A DNA stretch of 64,000 bases from positions 32,603-96,602 of the forward strand of contig JAZGFI010000271.1 in NCBI GenBank assembly GCA_036479435.1, in the 5' to 3' direction. Below are positions 32,272 to 60,712 of the stretch, one piece after another. Origin of the DNA: Planctomycetota bacterium (lineage in GTDB: Bacteria; Planctomycetota; GCA-002687715; DRQF01). The translations under genes were made by a program, and so were the position numbers. How positions within the stretch are numbered: position 1 is the stretch's first letter; each line of letters opens with the position of its first letter. The notes below the pieces were generated by a model. That model made no database searches and was not told the origin of the DNA. It saw nothing but the letters and a program-made list of their open reading frames with translations.

Positions 32272-34484
32272 GAATCGAGAAGATCAAGCTTGCTGGGTTC
32301 GGGTCTTTTGCGAAGGGAATCGAAGTTGATTTCGCACAGGATCGCTTGGCCCTGATCATCGGCCGCAACGAAGCGGGTAAGTCCACCTTGATGAGTGCCG
32401 TGTTCGGCGTCATTTTTGGATTCAAAGACCAGGGGCTCCAAAAGAAATTCGAACCCTGGGATGCCTACGACGAGTATGCGGGCGAAGTCTGGATTCGAGA
32501 CGAGGCCAAACGGCTCGTGGTCATCAAGCGCAATTTTGCCGACAACACCGCCGAGATCGGCGTGGTCGAGGACGGCAAGTACGAAGCTGAGTTCTTGGGC
32601 AGCGCCAATCCCCGAGGCCACTCGGACGAAGACATCGACTACTACCGTCGGATTGAGAAGATCGTCGGCTTCCAAGACGAGTCTGTCTTTCGAGGCACGG
32701 TTTTTGTCGGTCAAAGCGCGCTCGAAGTTTCCATCAACGACCAAATCCGCAGGCTGGTATCCGGCTCCGGCAGTACTGATTTCAAAGGGGCCCTCCACGA
32801 CCTCCACAGCCGATTCAGTGAATTGACAATGGAGAATCCTTGGCGGACCCGAAGTAAGTCGCGTCCGAGAGCCATCGAAAAAACTCGCGGCCAGCTCGAA
32901 AAGACGGTTAACGACCTTGAGAATGCGCGCGAGACGTTCCTGAAGACTATGAGTCTCGAAAGCGAACTCAAGAAGCTGGAAACGAAACTCCTCGCCAGCA
33001 AAAACGAACTTGAAGACACCAAAAAAACGCTCTCCTACTTTGAGCGCTTTTGCAAGTTGGTTCGGGATCGAGATACGGCCCGCGAGCGATTCAAAGAATC
33101 AAACAAGCGTCGCGACGATTATCTGCTCTGTCGCAAACAAGTCGGCGCGAGCGATTCCGAAATCTCGGCAAGTTTGTCTCACTTTCGACAGGTCGGCGAC
33201 TCCTTCCCAGAACTCGTCACGCAGCTAAAGTCTGAGACACGAGAGTTGGAAAACGAGGAGGCAAACCTCCAGCGCGAACGAGATGCCCTCCGCACCTTGG
33301 AGTCGAAACCCAACAACAAGCTTGGCATCGCTTTGGGCGGCCTCGGACTTGCCGTCGGAGTCGTCGTCATTATCTTGACGAATATCGGCATCGGCGCCGT
33401 CGTGGCCGTTGCGCTCGCTGCAGGTCTCTTTTTTGGTGGTCGGCTCATGGCGACCGGCTTCAAGGAGCGCAAGGCCGAACTCGAATACTCCGTTGAGGAC
33501 CAGACGCGAAACCTCGACCGCCGCACGAAGGCAATTCAGTCACTCATTTCCGAGAGCGGCGGCGTGCTTGGTGACCGCGATCCCGATCGCATTCTCGTCG
33601 ACTACCGTCGCTACCGAAAGCTCATGGATGACCGCGCCAAACAAAAGTCGACCATGAAGGTACTCGGTGATTGGAACAATATCGACGCGACTTATCAGCG
33701 CGCGGCCGAAGAGACGCTTCGTTGCAATGGCCTCTTGGATCTGATTTTGCAGGATGCTCCTTATCTCACCGAGATTTCGGAGGACGCCGTTGCGGTCGCC
33801 AAGAGCATGGAGCAGCTTAAGCGCCGCGCCAACGACCTTGAATCGGAAATCGACATCGGTTCCGAAGTGGTCACCGAAGCCAAGATCGAGTTGGCCCGCG
33901 TGTCACCTCAGGAGGGACAGGGTCTAGACCTCCCGGTGTTGGAAGAAGAAGTGCGCCGAGGTGGTCGCAAACTGGAGCACCTCGAATTCGAGCGCGATTC
34001 TCTACGGGTCGTCATCGACACCCTCGAAGACTGCGTCGAAGAATTCCAAGAGGGAGACTTGACCCAGCTTTCGACTGAGGTCTCCGAACTATTCCGCAAG
34101 ATCACCAGCAATCGCTACACCCGAGTCACCTTGTCTCCGAACATGGATCCGATGTTGACGAAGTTCGACAACACGCACATCCACCCGGACGACCTTTCCC
34201 AAGGAACTCGCGACCAGTTGTTCTTTGCCATGCGCGTCGCCATCGCTCGTCACCTGTCGAAGAAGGTCGCACTGCCGTTCTTCCTCGATGACCCCTTCGT
34301 CAACTTTGACGAAGAACGCCTCCAAGTGACCAAGGAAATGCTGGAGCAGATCAGCGACCACCAAGTGGTCTTAGTGACCTGTGACCGCAGCTACGAGTCC
34401 TGGTCGGAAAACGTCCTCGACCTCGATAAAGCGCGTGCAGAGTCCGCCATGACCGCCACCGGGCTGAAGCTGACGATGAACTAA
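32268..34484 (+). CDS. Rad50/SbcC-like (YhaN-type) coiled-coil ATPase with a central TM hairpin
   Basis: GFGSF, GRNEAGKST, Q-loop FVGQ, LSQGTRDQL, LDDPFVNFD; two hydrophobic helices at the coil apex. ATGA overlap with the upstream gene. Confidence 0.88.
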   Translation: MRIEKIKLAGFGSFAKGIEVDFAQDRLALIIGRNEAGKSTLMSAVFGVIFGFKDQGLQKKFEPWDAYDEYAGEVWIRDEAKRLVVIKRNFADNTAEIGVVEDGKYEAEFLGSANPRGHSDEDIDYYRRIEKIVGFQDESVFRGTVFVGQSALEVSINDQIRRLVSGSGSTDFKGALHDLHSRFSELTMENPWRTRSKSRPRAIEKTRGQLEKTVNDLENARETFLKTMSLESELKKLETKLLASKNELEDTKKTLSYFERFCKLVRDRDTARERFKESNKRRDDYLLCRKQVGASDSEISASLSHFRQVGDSFPELVTQLKSETRELENEEANLQRERDALRTLESKPNNKLGIALGGLGLAVGVVVIILTNIGIGAVVAVALAAGLFFGGRLMATGFKERKAELEYSVEDQTRNLDRRTKAIQSLISESGGVLGDRDPDRILVDYRRYRKLMDDRAKQKSTMKVLGDWNNIDATYQRAAEETLRCNGLLDLILQDAPYLTEISEDAVAVAKSMEQLKRRANDLESEIDIGSEVVTEAKIELARVSPQEGQGLDLPVLEEEVRRGGRKLEHLEFERDSLRVVIDTLEDCVEEFQEGDLTQLSTEVSELFRKITSNRYTRVTLSPNMDPMLTKFDNTHIHPDDLSQGTRDQLFFAMRVAIARHLSKKVALPFFLDDPFVNFDEERLQVTKEMLEQISDHQVVLVTCDRSYESWSENVLDLDKARAESAMTATGLKLTMN

Positions 34485-46221: not shown

Positions 46222-46598
46222 CGCGAAAACCCCCTACCTATCATCGGACCGTCTCTTGCCTGCTCACACTAATGGAGCGACCTAATGCGCGTGGCTAGAT
46301 GGGCGACAATGAGAACAAATAGTCCGTCGGTTACCGGTAGGCGTCACCGGTTGAAACAAAGTCCTTGCACAATTTCTGTGCACTTGGCTTTTTTCGATCT
46401 CGGATGCACCCCCAAAGGGGCGATCCTAAGTCCTCTTGGACCCGACCGTTTACCCAAGGATTCTAACTCAAGGGTGGGGTCAGGGAACAGTCTGGAAGCA
46501 AACAGTGGACGTAGCGCCCTGAAAATGGGAAGCTGATGAGCACGGAGGCCCTTGAGCCCCATAGGCTTATGAGATATCGCGACCCTCGAGACCCAGTC

Positions 46599-48446
46599 AT
46601 GAATCGTATCTTAATCACCCTCGTTCTTTTCGCTGCCGCCGTCTTGCCGCTGCAAGCGCAATTACAAATCGAAGACGCCATCCTCGCCACGACGACAGGC
46701 ATGACCCACATAAGGGCGCTCGCATCGACGCCCGTGGTTCCGAACGCCACCGACGCCAACCCGATTTTGACCTCAGGCTTCGCCACCGGGTCGATCTTGT
46801 CGATCCCCGGAACGAGCCTCGTTCTCTACGCCGAAGGCGGAGCTGCGGCCCAAGTCTTTTTGCTGGAGTTTGCCCCGGGTGCCGGCGGCGGAGTCGGTAC
46901 CGGGATTGCCGGACCTGCGAGCACGCTTTTGGGTGTCGCTGCGGGCTCCGTGATCAACATGGCATACGATTCCGAGAACGACGTCGCCTATCTCCTGACG
47001 ACACCTGGAGCCATCAACACCATCACCGGGCCTATCACCAGTACTTCGCAAGTCGACAGCCTACTGTTTGCCAGCGGTCAATCCGGCGGCGTCGGCATTG
47101 CCGTGGGCGCCAACAACCAGTTGCTAGTGGCCAGCGCGGCTGAGGCATGGCCCGTGAATGGCGGCGACGTTGCGCCCAACGCGACCTTCATCACTTTCGT
47201 TTCTTCTGGAATCGCCAACATCGAATACGACGCGGCGAACGACCGCTTCTACACTTCAGCCTTGAATCTCAGTTCCGTTCACGTTTACGACGGGTCCACC
47301 GGGACACTGTTCGCAACTCCGTTGTCATCGCCGAACCTCCTCATCTGTGACGCTTGTAGTTACAGCCCCGCATCGGACATGGTGTACGGGATTACCCGAT
47401 TCGCAACGACCATTCAAGGCGTCCCGCAATACGGCAACAACCCGATTTCGGCTGGTGCCTTTGACAACGTTTTGGTTTGCACCGACTTGGTCGGTGGCAA
47501 CGCCACGGCCATGGGCTGCAGCCCACAGTCCGGTCACGGCAATGCGGGCTTGAACACATCCTTAGCTATCGTGCAGCCGCTCAGAGGCTCGATTGACTTC
47601 GACCCGGCTTCCAACATCCTCAATTTCAACACCGCCACCAACACGGTGTCGGCGACTCTGACGGTCCTGCAGTTGCGTTTCGGGGGCTTGATTACAAGTT
47701 CCGCCGTCGATCCCTTGGTGGGCTCAACGGTTTTGATCTCGGGTGACTACACTGGAACCGACCTTGTCGACCTCACGGATATCGACCTGAGCAATGTCAA
47801 CGTTGAGTTCTTCCAGACCTCAACGCCCCCAGGAACGGCCGACAACACCTACGCGAGCGCAAGCCCGAGCAATGCTGGCGCTTCCACTGGATTCACGGGG
47901 CAGCGACAAGCTACGCCCTTTGCGACGCGAGTCTTTGACCTTGGAACCGCGACGATGGTTACCGGAGCTGGTGGAACCTCGGCCGTTCTGACCGCGATTT
48001 CTGATCTCGTTTCCACCGGCTCTCGCATTGGTTTCGATGTCAGTATTAGCTCAGGTGGCATCGGTTCGCTGACGCTCAACCCCGTCGCGAAAGCAGCGCC
48101 TTACGAGACACGCATTGCTTCAAGTGGCAACGGCGACCTCGAAATCGGCACGATTGGCGCGGTCCCGATGTCCTTTCTCTATCACATCGGCACCACGATG
48201 ATCTCGACGCCGACCAACAGCGGGCCCTTCTTCGGATTGACCGCGGACTCGAACCTGTTCACTCAGATTCAAAAGCCCTTCTTTACTGACCCCTTCGTCG
48301 TCGCTTCCGACGCCAACGGTCAGTACAACTTCTTTTTGTCCGCAGGATTCGTTGCTTCCGGCGTGTCCCTGGATTACGTCGGCATCAACTACGATTCGAT
48401 CAACGTCATCGTGAACATCTTGCCCGCAAGGAACACGATTTTCTAA
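46599..48446 (+). CDS. Large secreted hypothetical protein (T/G/S/A-rich, beta-rich)
   Basis: Signal peptide MNRILITLVLFAAAVLPLQA; long open ORF followed by a terminator. Confidence 0.75.
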   Translation: MNRILITLVLFAAAVLPLQAQLQIEDAILATTTGMTHIRALASTPVVPNATDANPILTSGFATGSILSIPGTSLVLYAEGGAAAQVFLLEFAPGAGGGVGTGIAGPASTLLGVAAGSVINMAYDSENDVAYLLTTPGAINTITGPITSTSQVDSLLFASGQSGGVGIAVGANNQLLVASAAEAWPVNGGDVAPNATFITFVSSGIANIEYDAANDRFYTSALNLSSVHVYDGSTGTLFATPLSSPNLLICDACSYSPASDMVYGITRFATTIQGVPQYGNNPISAGAFDNVLVCTDLVGGNATAMGCSPQSGHGNAGLNTSLAIVQPLRGSIDFDPASNILNFNTATNTVSATLTVLQLRFGGLITSSAVDPLVGSTVLISGDYTGTDLVDLTDIDLSNVNVEFFQTSTPPGTADNTYASASPSNAGASTGFTGQRQATPFATRVFDLGTATMVTGAGGTSAVLTAISDLVSTGSRIGFDVSISSGGIGSLTLNPVAKAAPYETRIASSGNGDLEIGTIGAVPMSFLYHIGTTMISTPTNSGPFFGLTADSNLFTQIQKPFFTDPFVVASDANGQYNFFLSAGFVASGVSLDYVGINYDSINVIVNILPARNTIF

Positions 48447-48485: not shown

Positions 48486-48580
48486 AAAACAGGCCCGAGG
48501 GGAATTCCCCTTGGGCCTGTTTTCATGAATTCCAAAGGCCCGAGGGGAATCTCCCTTGGGCCTGTTTTCATGAATTCCAA
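48486..48580. terminator. Tandemly duplicated intrinsic terminator (2 x 45 bp)
   Basis: AGGCCCGAGGGGAATTCCCCTTGGGCCTGTTTTCATGAATTCCAA at 48491-48535, with a copy differing at 2 positions at 48536-48580. Confidence 0.88.
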
Positions 48581-48581
48581 G

Positions 48582-51488
48582 TCAGCTTTGTTTGGCAGCC
48601 GCTTGAACACTCGCAACGTTGCGATTCATCCGACGGAAGCGACGGATGTTCTTTTGTAGGCGCTCCGCAAAATCGGCGGCCTTAGCCTGGTTGTAGTCGT
48701 ACTGTCCGATTTTTTTGCCGCTGAAGGGATCGATCACGACGTAGATCGGGTTGGTGACCGAGCCCGTCATCTCTTCCTTCATCTTTTGGAATCGAACCGG
48801 CGCCTTACCTTGGTCGGTAAAGAGCGAGGTAACGACCATCTTGCTCATACCTGATATCACTTCTGAGTTTGTCGAGAACACACGGCTCTCGATCTCGCGA
48901 CAGTTCGGTCACGTCACGCCGGTGTAGTCGATGAAGACCGGAACGCCTAGCTCCTTCGCCGTCTCGTAGGCCAGCTCTGGATTGTCGCGGTAGGCCGCGT
49001 GACCGGCCCATCCCAGGCCCGCTTCGCCTGAAACCTCTTCGAAGGCCGGTGGCATGAGGCTTTCGACCAAAAAGGGCATCTGCTCGCCTTTCGCGCCAGC
49101 GATGAGGTAGACCCCGAAAACGATGAGAATGATCGCAATCGCCCCGGAAATCGGCCCCACGCGCTCCACCTTGGGATCGTGTGCGAAGCGAACAACGCCG
49201 AGGAGGTAGAGGCCATTCATGATGAACATGATGACCCACATCCACAGAATCGAGGTTCGAGTGAAGATCTCCCATTCAAAGTAGGCGTCCATGGCTCCCA
49301 AAAACTTCAGCGCGAAGGCGAGCTCCAAAAAGCCCAAGGTGACCTTAACGCTGTTCATCCAGCCACCGCTTTTGGGCATGGCTTTCAAAAAGCGTGGGAA
49401 CAAGGCGAGGAAAAAGAACGGAAAAGCGAGCACTGTCGAGAACGACAACATGCCAATGACGGGCATAATCCACTCTTCGCTTTCCGCGGCCGCCACCAAA
49501 ATCAATCCGACCAAAGGCGCAGTACAAGTGAAGCTCGTCAAAGAGAACAACAGCCCCATACCCAAGGTGCCGACGAGTCCGCCACGGCCCTGCACTTTTC
49601 CCGCTTTTGCCATCAAAAATGCTGGCGGCTGCAGCGTGAAGACGCCAAAGAGAGAGAGCGAGAACAGAATGAAAAGGACACCGAAGAGCCCCTGAACGTA
49701 ACCGTTCGTCGCGAGAATCTGGGCTCCTGCGGCTCCGAAGAGCCAGGTGAAAGCCACGCCAATGGCAACGAAGCTCGCGATGATGCCGAGCACATAGACG
49801 GTCGGCATGATGATCGGGTTCTTGTGACCTTGTTCGGCTTGCTTCGTGAAGAAGGAAACCGTCACGGGGATCATCGGGAAGACACAGGGAGTCAGAAGCG
49901 CCAAAAAGGCGGCGAAGGCGGCCTTCAAGACCCAATCCCAAAGGTTGGGGATACCGTAGCTCAATCTCGCTCGGGCAACCGGAAGCTCGTAGTCAAACTC
50001 CTGGCCATTCTCCAAAACCAAGGGCGCGGACACCGACAGCTCGAGCGTTTCATCGCCACTCTTGGCGGCGTCGGTGGCCAAGAGTTCAAGGGTGATTTGA
50101 TGGCTCAGGCCATCATCACTTGAAGAGACTTCGGTGGCCAAGACGTCGGCCACGCGCTTGCTCGTGTCACCATCGTCGCGAACCCAATCCACAAAGATGT
50201 CGTTTGGCGACCCGATGTGGACTTTTTCGGGACTGCGGAACTTGTAGACCAAGATCAGCGTTTCGGAGGCACGGATGTCGCTGCTCTTTAGGCTGATCGC
50301 CGTATCCCCAAAATCCAAAGACGGGGCTATCGCCGCGGCCTCGGGGGCCTTCGGCGTCAGCACGTCGAGCTTGTCTTCCAGCCCGTCCAGTCGCGAATGA
50401 AGACCCTCAACACTATCGAGGACCCGTTTTAACCCCGCCCCGCCAAGTGCCGGCCCGCCACTCGTCGAACTCGCGTTCGCATCCGCAACTTCAATCGGCA
50501 AGCGAAATTTGATGAGGTCGGGAAGGCAGCCCGCCTCGTCACAGGTTTGATAGTCCAAAGTCCACATAGTCCGCTTGATGCCCGGGGTGGCGTCCGCCGC
50601 GATCCGAATCCTCTGCCGGATGACGACCTTCCCCTTGTGGATGTAGTTCTTGACGATCTCGCCGTAGTTGGCTTCCTTCATCTTCGGCTTGGGCTCAACG
50701 GGGGCGCCCACCAACTCAAGCACCGCGGCGTGGTCGGCACCCATACTCTTTTTATCGAGACTAATCACCGACTTTGCGGCGTAGGTACCGGGATCGATAA
50801 AGGAGTAAGTCCAACGTCCCTTTTTGACCTCCAGGGCTAATTCCAAGGTTGCTTCGCTGCCCGGTTTGGGATTGGCCGGGATGAGACGCGCAACGCCCAC
50901 GAGGAAGTCGTTGCGGCCCTTCAACTCGACACCAGCTTGGCTGGTCGCGTCTCCGTCCGAGCCGGCCGATTCGGCCGCGGCCTGAATGTTGATCTTCGCG
51001 CGAAAGTTTGTGCTCTTCGGAGGGTTGCAGGCATTCGGATCACAAGCGACGTAAAAAAGGTTCCCCTTGACGCGCAGCTCGCCCTTAACAGACGGATCGA
51101 AAATGATCGGGACCCGGAACTCAAAGCTGTTTTCGTGGTAGCTGAGCTTTTGGCCCGCAAGTTCTTCGTGATGCGGCTCCGGCTCAGAAATCTCGCCATC
51201 GACCTTGAGGCCCTTGGTCTCGATGTTGATGGCCGTCGGCTTGTAGTCGCCTTGAGCCTTCACCGAGTAAACGTGCCAGGTAGGTGCCATCTTGACTCTG
51301 ATGACCAAGGTCGCCCGCCCACCCACTGCCACCGTGGCGGGCTCGAAACTCGCGCCTTCGATCGTGAGGGCTTCCTCATCAACACGGGGGCTGGCATTTT
51401 CAAGATCCGGAGGAAATTGCGCCCACAGGGACGCGGTCATGGCGGTCAACCATGCCAGGCTCAAAAGCGCAATGCGGAGTCGATTCAT
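48582..51488 (-). CDS. dsbD: Thiol:disulfide interchange protein DsbD, probable selenoprotein (UGA at 48909-48911 in a UxxC motif)
   Basis: Signal peptide; two DsbD-N domains (ACDPNAC, TCDEAGC); TM domain (LTPCVFP, SFTCTAP). The thioredoxin domain DYTGVT-UGA-PNCREIE continues in frame to 48582. Confidence 0.85.
48870..48908 (-). promoter_or_regulatory. Putative bacterial SECIS element
   Basis: Stem UCGAGAGC/GUUCUCGA (48892-48885 with 48879-48872) and loop CGUGU, beginning 24 nt after the UGA. Confidence 0.7.
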
Positions 51489-58265: not shown

Positions 58266-59447
58266 TTAGAGGTCTTCGAGGAAGGTAATCAAGGCCGCTT
58301 GCTCGGTCGCCGTCAGATTGAAGAAAGCAGCTTGGGCGTTGCTGGCCTCACCGAGGTGCGCTTCGATAGCCGCTTGTAGAGTCTCCGCTCGGCCGTCGTG
58401 AAGGTAGGGCGCGCTGCGCGAAATACCGATGAGAACCGGAGTTTTATAAAAGCCGACGGGTGCACCCGGTTCGCTCATCCCTCTGAAGGTAGGAGCAAAG
58501 ATGTGGTGCAAGAGGAGGTTCGAGTAGAGCGTGACCGGCCCGCTTGGTCCCATCAAGGTGGGGATGTGGCAAGTGGCACAGCCGACCTGAGTGAAGAGAA
58601 CCTCACCCTGGGCGACTTCAGGAGCGGTGGAGCCGCCGCGCGGTGGCGCCGCCAAGTGGCTCAAGAAAAACGCGATATCATCGAGGTCGGCGTCACTAAT
58701 TTCGGGGTCGGCGGCAGGGTCGTTGTCGCTCAGGCTGCCGAAACCGCGACCGTTGTTGGGCACCGTAATGCCCATCTCGCCGCCCATGGCGTCGCGCACG
58801 AAGTCCGCGAGTCGGGGCACTTGGCCCTTCCAGCCGAACCGGCCAACCTCTTGAACACCAGCCACCATGATCATGCGAGCGACACCCATCACGCCATCGG
58901 AATTGGCATCGCCGGGGTCCTCGTTCGATAGGATGGTCGCATCAGAGATGAGGTCGATCTCGCCGAAGCCAAACAAGGCTGGCGTCTGTCGCTGTTCAAA
59001 GACATCCGCCGTGGGATCGATCTCTTCGCGCGGGCCGACTGACAGCGCTGCCGCATCTAAGCGACGGAACTTACTCGCAGCCTGACCGCCGGGGAGATCC
59101 ATGTAAGGCCCGGATCCGCCGTTGTCGAAAGCGAATCGAGAGACATTCAACTCCAGACCACCCGCCCCCCCAATGACCGGGTCTTCGTGACAGGCGCGAC
59201 AGCTATCACCGTTGTATTCGGGGCCGCCCAGACCCTCGCTGAAGCGAAAGTCCTTATCGAAAAGGCGCCGCCCATTGATCCAACTTGTCAACTCAGAGGT
59301 CGTTAGTTGGCGCGACGGGCCGCCGAAAGTACCGACAGCGGGGACCGGAGTCGACTCATCAAGGGAGGCACTTTTTACCGTGCCGTCGTGACTGGCGAAC
59401 AGAAACAAGGCAAGCAGCAGGCTCGACGAAACTAAGAGGGTCTTCAT
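58266..59447 (-). CDS. Di-heme oxidoreductase family protein
   Basis: GLGGPEYN..SCRACH, GRFGWK, CATCH, PYLHDGRA.TL..AI..H.GE. Confidence 0.88.
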   Translation of the reverse strand: MKTLLVSSSLLLALFLFASHDGTVKSASLDESTPVPAVGTFGGPSRQLTTSELTSWINGRRLFDKDFRFSEGLGGPEYNGDSCRACHEDPVIGGAGGLELNVSRFAFDNGGSGPYMDLPGGQAASKFRRLDAAALSVGPREEIDPTADVFEQRQTPALFGFGEIDLISDATILSNEDPGDANSDGVMGVARMIMVAGVQEVGRFGWKGQVPRLADFVRDAMGGEMGITVPNNGRGFGSLSDNDPAADPEISDADLDDIAFFLSHLAAPPRGGSTAPEVAQGEVLFTQVGCATCHIPTLMGPSGPVTLYSNLLLHHIFAPTFRGMSEPGAPVGFYKTPVLIGISRSAPYLHDGRAETLQAAIEAHLGEASNAQAAFFNLTATEQAALITFLEDL

Positions 59448-60712
59448 TACAAGGCCTCCAAGAAAGCGATGATCGACTGCTGTTCAGTCGTCGTCAGGTT
59501 CATGAAAGCGCTGGCACTCGTCAGGCCTTCGCCCGCGTGTAGTTCGATGGCGTGCTGCAAAGTCTCGGCACGTCCGTCGTGTAAGTAAGGGGCGTGAAGC
59601 GACACGCCCCACAGCGGCGCCGTGCGCCATTCGCTCTCGGTCGTTCCGGGCGAAATCGACGACATCTGCGGCGCTCCGAAGTGAATGCCGTCTGCTAGGT
59701 CCGGTCCCATGTCGTGAATAAGCAAGTCGGTGTAGGCGTTGACCGGTCCGGCAGATCCATCCAGCCTCGGGATGTGACAGGCCGCACAACCGATTTGGGA
59801 GAACAGCGTTTCGCCGTCGCGCGCGCTGGCGCTAAAAGCCTTGGGCACCGGGGGGGCCAGAAGCCGCGTGAAGGCGATCATGTCCGCCAGATCGACCACT
59901 GATATCTCAGGGTCCGGAATACCGTCGTTGTCAACAATCGGAGCGGTGGGATCGGTAGTCGCTTGAAGGCCACCTGCCCGCAAACTCACCACGCCTCCTG
60001 CGCCCAGAACCGGATCACTGGTGATCCCCATCTGGGTGTTCAGTGGCGCGCGTGTGAAGGTCTCAATGTTGTTCGACTGCGCCTTGTAGCCAAAGCGACC
60101 GATCGCCCCCTGGTCACGATTGAAGCGACCCGAGATGCCGTCGCTGTCGCTGTCATCAGGATCGGCGTTCGACATGATCGTGATGTCGCTAATGGTCTCA
60201 AAGAGGCCAACGCCAAACACCGGGGGCGCGTTTCTTTGAGCGACGGTCACCGGCAAGCCGAACAAGCCGGTCGGAATCTGAATGCGGGCACCCTCCAGCT
60301 GGAAGCTCGCCGAAGTGTGAAAACCGCTGCCGTAGGCCGGTACGACAATCGAAGGCAGTCCGATCATCGCTAGCTGGAAGCCGGGGGGCCCCGCCGCCGC
60401 GAGGTAGAAGTTCCGATAGAGTTCGGAAGAACCCCCGACTGTCGGGTGCGAATGGCACGAGGCACAACTAGTGCCGTTGTAAAACGGGCCCAGCCCTTCT
60501 GAGGGCTTAAACCGCTTTTCAAACATAGTCTTGCCACGGCTAAAGGCCGCTAAGTCGGCTGCGCTGAGGCCTTCGAGCGGCCCTCCAACAGCAGGGCTGC
60601 TCACAGCGTCGTCGCCATCGCGGTTCTTACAGGATGTGCTGAGCACAAGCCCCAAGAACAAGCCTACAACGATCGAGATTCCCACGGGTCTGGGCATGAT
60701 AATCGTCCTCAC
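59447..60712 (-). CDS. Di-heme oxidoreductase family protein (probable lipoprotein)
   Basis: STSC lipobox-like sequence; GLGPFYN..SCASCH, GRFGYKA, CAACH, WRTAPLWG, YLHDGRA. Confidence 0.88.
   Translation of the reverse strand: MRTIIMPRPVGISIVVGLFLGLVLSTSCKNRDGDDAVSSPAVGGPLEGLSAADLAAFSRGKTMFEKRFKPSEGLGPFYNGTSCASCHSHPTVGGSSELYRNFYLAAAGPPGFQLAMIGLPSIVVPAYGSGFHTSASFQLEGARIQIPTGLFGLPVTVAQRNAPPVFGVGLFETISDITIMSNADPDDSDSDGISGRFNRDQGAIGRFGYKAQSNNIETFTRAPLNTQMGITSDPVLGAGGVVSLRAGGLQATTDPTAPIVDNDGIPDPEISVVDLADMIAFTRLLAPPVPKAFSASARDGETLFSQIGCAACHIPRLDGSAGPVNAYTDLLIHDMGPDLADGIHFGAPQMSSISPGTTESEWRTAPLWGVSLHAPYLHDGRAETLQHAIELHAGEGLTSASAFMNLTTTEQQSIIAFLEAL

Follow-up and report, generated by a model that had tools for sequence, protein, structure and literature searches.

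In DsbD (DipZ) of Escherichia coli, the attacking Cys461 has a pKa of 10.5, which prevents non-specific reoxidation until nDsbD is bound (PMC2631958), and this high pKa is set by Asp455 and Glu468 (PMC3961690). The DsbD proteins of Bacteroides and of Leptospira form distinct branches according to PMC3322552; no experimental characterisation of the Bacteroides-type branch was found. Table 1 of a 2026 review (PMC13188914) contains 119 prokaryotic selenoprotein families, many of them UxxC thioredoxin folds (U, selenocysteine, Sec), and also lists a 'thiol:disulfide interchange protein' (PF13098) and TsoB. None of these 119 families is an alpha-beta-gamma DsbD with Sec in the gamma domain. Word searches for DsbD plus selenoprotein found no paper describing a full-length DsbD with Sec in this domain; they did not cover subscription journals, and a prior mention is possible. 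What is already known comprises UxxC thioredoxin folds, the DsbD-like selenoprotein TsoB and one ocean read resembling DsbD-gamma. Here, a dsbD-superfamily gene of a Planctomycetota bacterium is described, which is located in a stretch of 64,000 nt (the window; positions 32,603 to 96,602 of contig JAZGFI010000271.1, assembly GCA_036479435.1). Its internal UGA is very probably decoded as Sec, and the gene most likely encodes an intact, not a truncated, DsbD-type membrane protein, with Sec insertion and function being predicted from frame, relatives and genome content.

The gene starts with the ATG at 51488 on the minus strand and comprises 968 codons including the internal TGA at 48911-48909. 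This TGA closes an open reading frame (ORF) of 886 aa directly past the motif DYTGVT; beyond it, the same frame runs on with P-N-C-R-E-I-E for 108 codons, up to the TGA at 48584-48582. A first-pass annotation, made from the DNA letters, had placed the stop at the first-Cys position of a thioredoxin CxxC, followed by about 108 open codons, and had predicted a read-through protein of about 968 aa. Translation of the frame bears out both claims: the product from ATG 51488 has 968 aa, with U at residue 860 and cysteines at 149/154, 316/321, 535, 655 and 863. The designation of the protein as periplasmic had to be corrected, as it is an inner-membrane protein, with its Sec domain predicted to lie on the periplasmic side.

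The genome assembly comprises 299 contigs (92% complete) and one relative is frameshifted in dsbD, both of which would suit a sequencing error or a recent nonsense mutation, the gene then being a pseudogene. Assembled contigs from three runs cover the codon, though, and all keep TGA with zero alternative letters (contigs only; two of the three possibly represent the source DNA); neither TGC nor TGT was seen. The TGA is common to all 8 same-family genomes and present in dozens of other families. Furthermore, neither PF02683 nor PF11412 matched anything else in this genome. With no second DsbD/CcdA-type gene found, a dispensable pseudogene is disfavoured. An error or recent mutation is effectively refuted by the conservation.

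For the domain assignment (coordinates in the feature table below), an alignment-based structure model with Cys placed at position 860 was used (mean predicted local distance difference test, pLDDT, 86.9 over the whole model; predicted template modelling score, pTM, 0.63); a single-sequence fold (pLDDT 38.5) was discarded. In the model, a helical membrane domain is preceded by three beta-sandwiches and followed by a thioredoxin fold, which is completed only by residues after the UGA. The duplicated DsbD-N domains of the first-pass annotation were recovered as two PF11412 matches, while the third beta-sandwich (about residues 397-511, Cys-free, no Pfam match) had been missed. Both alpha domains share 24% identity; the first matches the fold of DsbD-alpha 1jpe (Z 10.1, root-mean-square deviation (rmsd) 3.0, 111 aligned), the second that of the ScsB N-domain 6c29 (Z 13.0, rmsd 2.4, 128 aligned). 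The gamma domain scores below cut-off with the Pfam thioredoxin models; its top fold match is Bacteroides 3f9u (Z 16.6, rmsd 1.6, 123 aligned), and E. coli cDsbD 1vrs is matched with Z 12.4. Foldseek with the whole model returned largely generic Ig-repeat proteins. A simple hydropathy scan gave 7 membrane segments where eight are expected, and the model has more helices, some of them broken. C535 and C655 of the membrane domain and the alpha-domain Cys pair are invariant in 50 aligned sequences.

With E. coli DsbD, the protein shares the domain order, a redox pair for each domain type, and the Asp six residues before and the Glu seven residues after the attacking residue. It differs by the Sec predicted at the position of Cys461, by two C-x4-C alpha domains and by the Cys-free third domain, and it is not of the proteobacterial type (NCBIfam PRK00293; 104.9 bits, cut-off 330). 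The protein belongs to the Bacteroides-like DsbD branch (3F9U; Marinimicrobia P0024-P0121), with which it is 40-45% identical over membrane and gamma domains and which also provides the top fold match. The members of this branch contain Cys in place of Sec, in the form [DN][FY]TGxxCxxC in 98/98 matches, and those aligned have a single alpha domain. ScsB likewise has an extended N-terminal region, part of which is a Cys-free subdomain, and its N-domain shares the fold of the second alpha domain; ScsB identity was rejected, since Thr543, invariant in the alignment, occupies the +8 position counted from the first membrane Cys, where ScsB has its diagnostic Lys. CcdA identity was rejected as well, CcdA being a membrane domain alone, whereas alpha and gamma domains are present here.

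TsoB (NF045694, rhodanese/DsbD fusion-like), which the catalogue lists as a selenoprotein, shares the DsbD-type membrane domain, and its C-terminal region matches weakly. Compared by model and listing, it differs in that the first 180 model positions are unmatched and in its listed motif UxxxxU with two Sec, versus UxxC here; with 111.6 bits against a cut-off of 805 and a single UGA, TsoB identity was rejected. No true TsoB above cut-off was found in the 201 genomes of the phylum searched. The ocean 'Trx-like 2' group, whose domain class we take to be DsbD-gamma, anticipates, as far as its sequences indicate, the domain-level idea and not a full-length Sec-DsbD family. Its 22 sequences (supplement of PMC2398784) share UxxC, and in the read JCVI_READ_100177 the sequence resembles part of a canonical DsbD-gamma domain, with Sec. 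In the same material, 0/22 have the motif [DN]FTGxxUxNC or, by eye, a membrane domain, and the majority appear to be thioredoxins of soluble or lipoprotein type.

The family survey was sampled from Planctomycetota, and organism names of Sec forms were taken from NCBI labels on protein matches only. In a first search of 61 genomes, 42 matched and 30 loci were returned; the site column was TGA in 25/30 and TGC/TGT in 5/30, with 86-189 open codons downstream. These five loci, together with the Cys in all 98 full-length database matches (P0024-P0121; the named ones Marinimicrobia), agree with the first-pass expectation of Cys at the UGA column of homologues; likewise, the relatives were found to have retained the TGA, with the frame behind it intact and a hairpin specific to the position. 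A profile search of the phylum matched 157/301 genomes, with 168 matches in all. Among the matches listed (150 of 168), 93 had one TGA and 57 had no stop; TAA or TAG did not occur. At the attacking position, 63 of 90 distinct sites in fetched loci carried TGA and the other 27 a Cys codon, TGC/TGT (hand-picked, not a frequency). A motif scan of metagenomes gave at least 120 stretches, 80 of which were fetched; 65/80 have an in-frame upstream DsbD membrane domain, 9 end at a contig edge and 6 are without. One weak locus (35% identity) appeared in a search of named genomes, which the family profile did not pick up.

The public record of the gene itself (P0002) ends directly past D[FY]TGxx, as do 19/21 of the next-best protein matches (P0003-P0023); the remaining two are one frameshifted relative and one partial record. 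Records bearing U may not surface in this protein collection, so truncation is shown to be common, while corrected records are possible. The 21 matches are labelled 'cytochrome c biogenesis protein CcdA' (two) or 'hypothetical protein' by NCBI, all from Planctomycetota. A split or a pseudogene call by standard annotation had been predicted at first pass, and the truncation means that a core envelope-redox gene is cut and mislabelled CcdA across much of Planctomycetota. These gene calls would be correct if the UGA were a true stop, ending an 859-aa alpha-alpha-beta protein, CcdA-like and working with a separate thioredoxin, and if the downstream frame were a relic or had its own start. Long frames in this genome do end most often in TGA, and the gamma domain is absent from CcdA proteins (PMC3322552). 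Nevertheless, only the first strand of the thioredoxin fold precedes the UGA, which coincides exactly with the catalytic Cys, the stop of the listed matches is TGA and never TAA or TAG, the downstream frame is open and conserved over many families, and TGA forms track selA (see below). A true stop is therefore highly improbable.

In a quick tree of 86 sequences, 9 Sec/Cys changes were needed, at least 6 of them forced by well-supported branches (root not fixed), and one Cys genus is nested within the Sec clade of the gene's own order. The genomes of this genus (L047, L048 and L060 in G018, G009 and G014) still have both selA and selB, and from this placement Sec apparently reverted to Cys in them. 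As a separate observation, a single frame encodes a thioredoxin domain on either side of the membrane domain in the relatives L100-L105. Both thioredoxin domains are UxxC in L101 (G198) and L102 (G132), which are candidate double-selenocysteine DsbDs; L100, L104 and L105 have one Cys and one Sec domain, and L103 has Cys in both. A distinct DsbD-like match with one internal TGA (G034:C383:1654-2733) was noted in a genome in which selA and selB were not found.

All four genes whose presence the first-pass annotation had proposed to check (selA, selB, selC, selD) were found in the genome. selA (526 bits), selD and the tRNA-Sec gene (selC) are clustered on contig C117, all above curated cut-offs, and selB, also above its curated cut-off, is a 676-codon frame on contig C237. 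ARAGORN calls the tRNA as SeC with anticodon tca (UCA), and selD carries one TGA at its own Sec site. In the tally over the phylum, selA was detected in 90/91 genomes with a TGA form and in 39/49 genomes with Cys forms only (Fisher's exact test, p = 1e-4, which is overstated as kin are not independent); G133, tallied as without selA, does have selB. Cys forms are mostly found in Sec-capable genomes, and the machinery is almost always present where there is a Sec form.

Read-through as Cys or Trp by a variant code or by suppression would equally yield the full-length protein. In its favour, the known homologues with Cys mean that this residue would function, the hairpin described below is not strongly conserved, and one genome with a TGA form (G192) is without detectable selA and selB. 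Genome-wide UGA recoding was rejected, since TGA is the stop of 995/2179 frames of more than 350 codons, including the true end of the dsbD gene. Given also a dedicated UCA tRNA-Sec, SelB and a selD with TGA at its Sec site, insertion of Cys or Trp is extremely improbable, and decoding as Sec is retained.

A putative bacterial selenocysteine insertion sequence (bSECIS) follows the UGA, in which 48892-48885 pair with 48879-48872. The 8-bp hairpin with CGUGU loop claimed at first pass was recovered; the 24 nt after the UGA that had been given for its start apply to the loop, the stem beginning at 16 nt. Published bSECIS criteria are a loop of 3-9 nt, a stem of 4-16 bp, G in the first two loop positions and a spacing of 16-37 nt, with a minimum free energy ≤ -7.5 (PMC13188914). 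The hairpin lies within all four, having a loop of 5 nt, a stem of 8 bp, C-G-U at the loop start and a spacing of 24 nt, at -10.0 to -11.4 kcal/mol. Against synonymous-codon shuffles, it reaches z = -2.96 (p = 0.01). The mean z of such shuffles was -1.38 at the 63 TGA sites versus -0.69 at the 27 Cys sites (p = 0.005); flanking windows taken as controls gave 0.12 and -0.53. In the named register, 72.5% of cells were paired (score 0.271), exceeding 500 shuffles and slid registers. A loose hairpin rule fired after 3.5% of ordinary TGA triplets in the own genome, versus 8.2% (29/353) of TGA-x-x-Cys. The hairpin is supporting and not decisive, and weak evidence when taken alone.

Besides dsbD, eleven other UxxC frames with a downstream hairpin were selected from a scan of the genome (L144-L154), all on other contigs. 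Ten of them match a thioredoxin-fold Pfam family, most begin with signal-like leaders (by eye), and L149 shares the CGUGU loop.

Several results weigh against the reading as a Sec-containing DsbD. With dinucleotide shuffles, the hairpin is unexceptional (z -0.66 to -1.56), and only 22/63 TGA sites have a synonymous-shuffle z < -1.64. RNAalifold gave no consensus structure over 25 TGA sequences, and in a fixed register the paired positions did not differ significantly (TGA 4.7/8, Cys 4.0/8; p = 0.13). In G192, which is 90% complete, a weak tRNA-Sec match was the only trace of the machinery, and in G044 no selB match was obtained. The same-family relative L052 (G003) has a frameshift between membrane and thioredoxin domains, with UGA and hairpin kept; this may be an assembly error or a natural split. 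The domain arrangement in the structure model is uncertain. Finally, no client gene was found among the neighbours of dsbD, and none of the frames L144-L154 is adjacent to it. The first-pass reading of a selenoprotein DsbD is supported: the contigs keep TGA, the sel genes are present, and the downstream frame and the hairpin persist in relatives.

Feature positions at the dsbD locus, numbered within the window
Feature	Position	Strand	Basis or remark
dsbD-superfamily gene, 968 codons, one in-frame UGA read as Sec (predicted)	48582..51488	-	frame, Pfam, model
Hydrophobic N-terminal leader, probable signal peptide, residues 1-23	51420..51488	-	by eye and model helix, no predictor
DsbD-N (alpha) Ig-like domain 1, C149-x4-C154	50982..51368	-	PF11412 E 2e-9, over cut-off; fold 1jpe
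DsbD-N (alpha) Ig-like domain 2, C316-x4-C321	50496..50930	-	PF11412 E 7e-4, under cut-off; fold 6c29
Third beta-sandwich, Cys-free, helical linker ahead of domain	49956..50300	-	model; close relatives conserve domain
DsbD/CcdA membrane (beta) domain, C535 (TPCVFP), C655 (FTCTAP)	49092..49943	-	PF02683 E 1e-26, over cut-off
C-terminal thioredoxin (gamma) domain, D854...U860-P-N-C863...E867	48624..49010	-	fold matches 3f9u, 1vrs
In-frame UGA, predicted Sec860, attacking position of CxxC	48909..48911	-	frame, relatives, contigs
bSECIS-like hairpin, 8-bp stem (one G-U), CGUGU loop 48884-48880	48872..48892	-	folding; 24 nt loop spacing
45-nt terminator-like hairpin unit, head-to-tail duplicate, 96% identical	48486..48580		just past true stop, between convergent genes

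Electrons from cytoplasmic thioredoxin are predicted to reach periplasmic partners through the protein. By analogy with E. coli DsbD, cytoplasmic thioredoxin would reduce C535/C655 of the membrane domain, which in turn would reduce a U860-C863 selenenylsulfide; U860 would then attack the C-x4-C disulfide of either alpha domain, and the alpha domains would reduce periplasmic clients. For Sec insertion, SelB-GTP-Sec-tRNA would be recruited by the hairpin 16-37 nt downstream of the UGA, and under selenium shortage termination at the UGA would leave an 859-aa product without most of the thioredoxin fold. The clients are likely the cytochrome c maturation system, for which the genome has two assembly matches, and some exported UxxC redoxins, the partners being a guess.

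With this route, selenium would sit at exactly the site that E. coli DsbD keeps poorly nucleophilic (pKa about 10.5) until the partner meets it. Both pKa-raising acidic residues are kept here (D854 and E867); among relatives, the Asp455 equivalent is Asn in 22/63 Sec sites versus 1/27 Cys sites, the Asn forms clustering on the tree and thus not being independent. A route unlike that of E. coli would be compatible with Sec insertion: the gamma domain might reduce exported selenoproteins directly or might scavenge quickly, with the alpha domains serving some clients. Compared with thiols, selenols have a lower pKa and exchange faster, and the unreactive state that protects Cys461 of E. coli from reoxidation would be hard to keep with a selenolate; in addition, an extra thioredoxin domain, UxxC or CxxC, precedes the membrane domain in some relatives, and at least ten UxxC thioredoxin-fold frames are present in the genome. 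As the alpha-domain Cys pair is invariant in the aligned sequences, and D854 and E867 are retained, such a route is rather unlikely, and the E. coli-like relay is preferred.

As a tentative extension, which we consider possible, a single trans-membrane conduit for reductant may, in these Planctomycetota, have become the selenium-dependent hub of a network of exported selenoproteins, with a Sec gate tuned unlike the high-pKa gate of E. coli and powering at least ten exported UxxC redoxins; UGA termination under selenium shortage would switch the relay off or leave it truncated. If no other DsbD/CcdA-type gene exists besides dsbD, these bacteria would rely on a supply of selenium for reduction in their periplasm. 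The repeated Sec/Cys exchange (at least six changes) supplies matched pairs for asking what selenium buys in an oxidising compartment.

Operon-level clues to function were rejected, the neighbours of dsbD being unrelated: a LOG-family protein, a pseudopilin-like protein, an extracytoplasmic function (ECF) sigma factor and a kinase. Convergent with dsbD lies a gene (46536-48446, plus strand) for a Ser/Thr/Gly-rich protein of 636 aa, which is probably secreted and has no Pfam match. At 58266-60712 on the minus strand, two tandem ORFs contain several CxxCH motifs. Presumably, these ORFs resemble di-haem oxidoreductases, and they are possible users of cytochrome c maturation.

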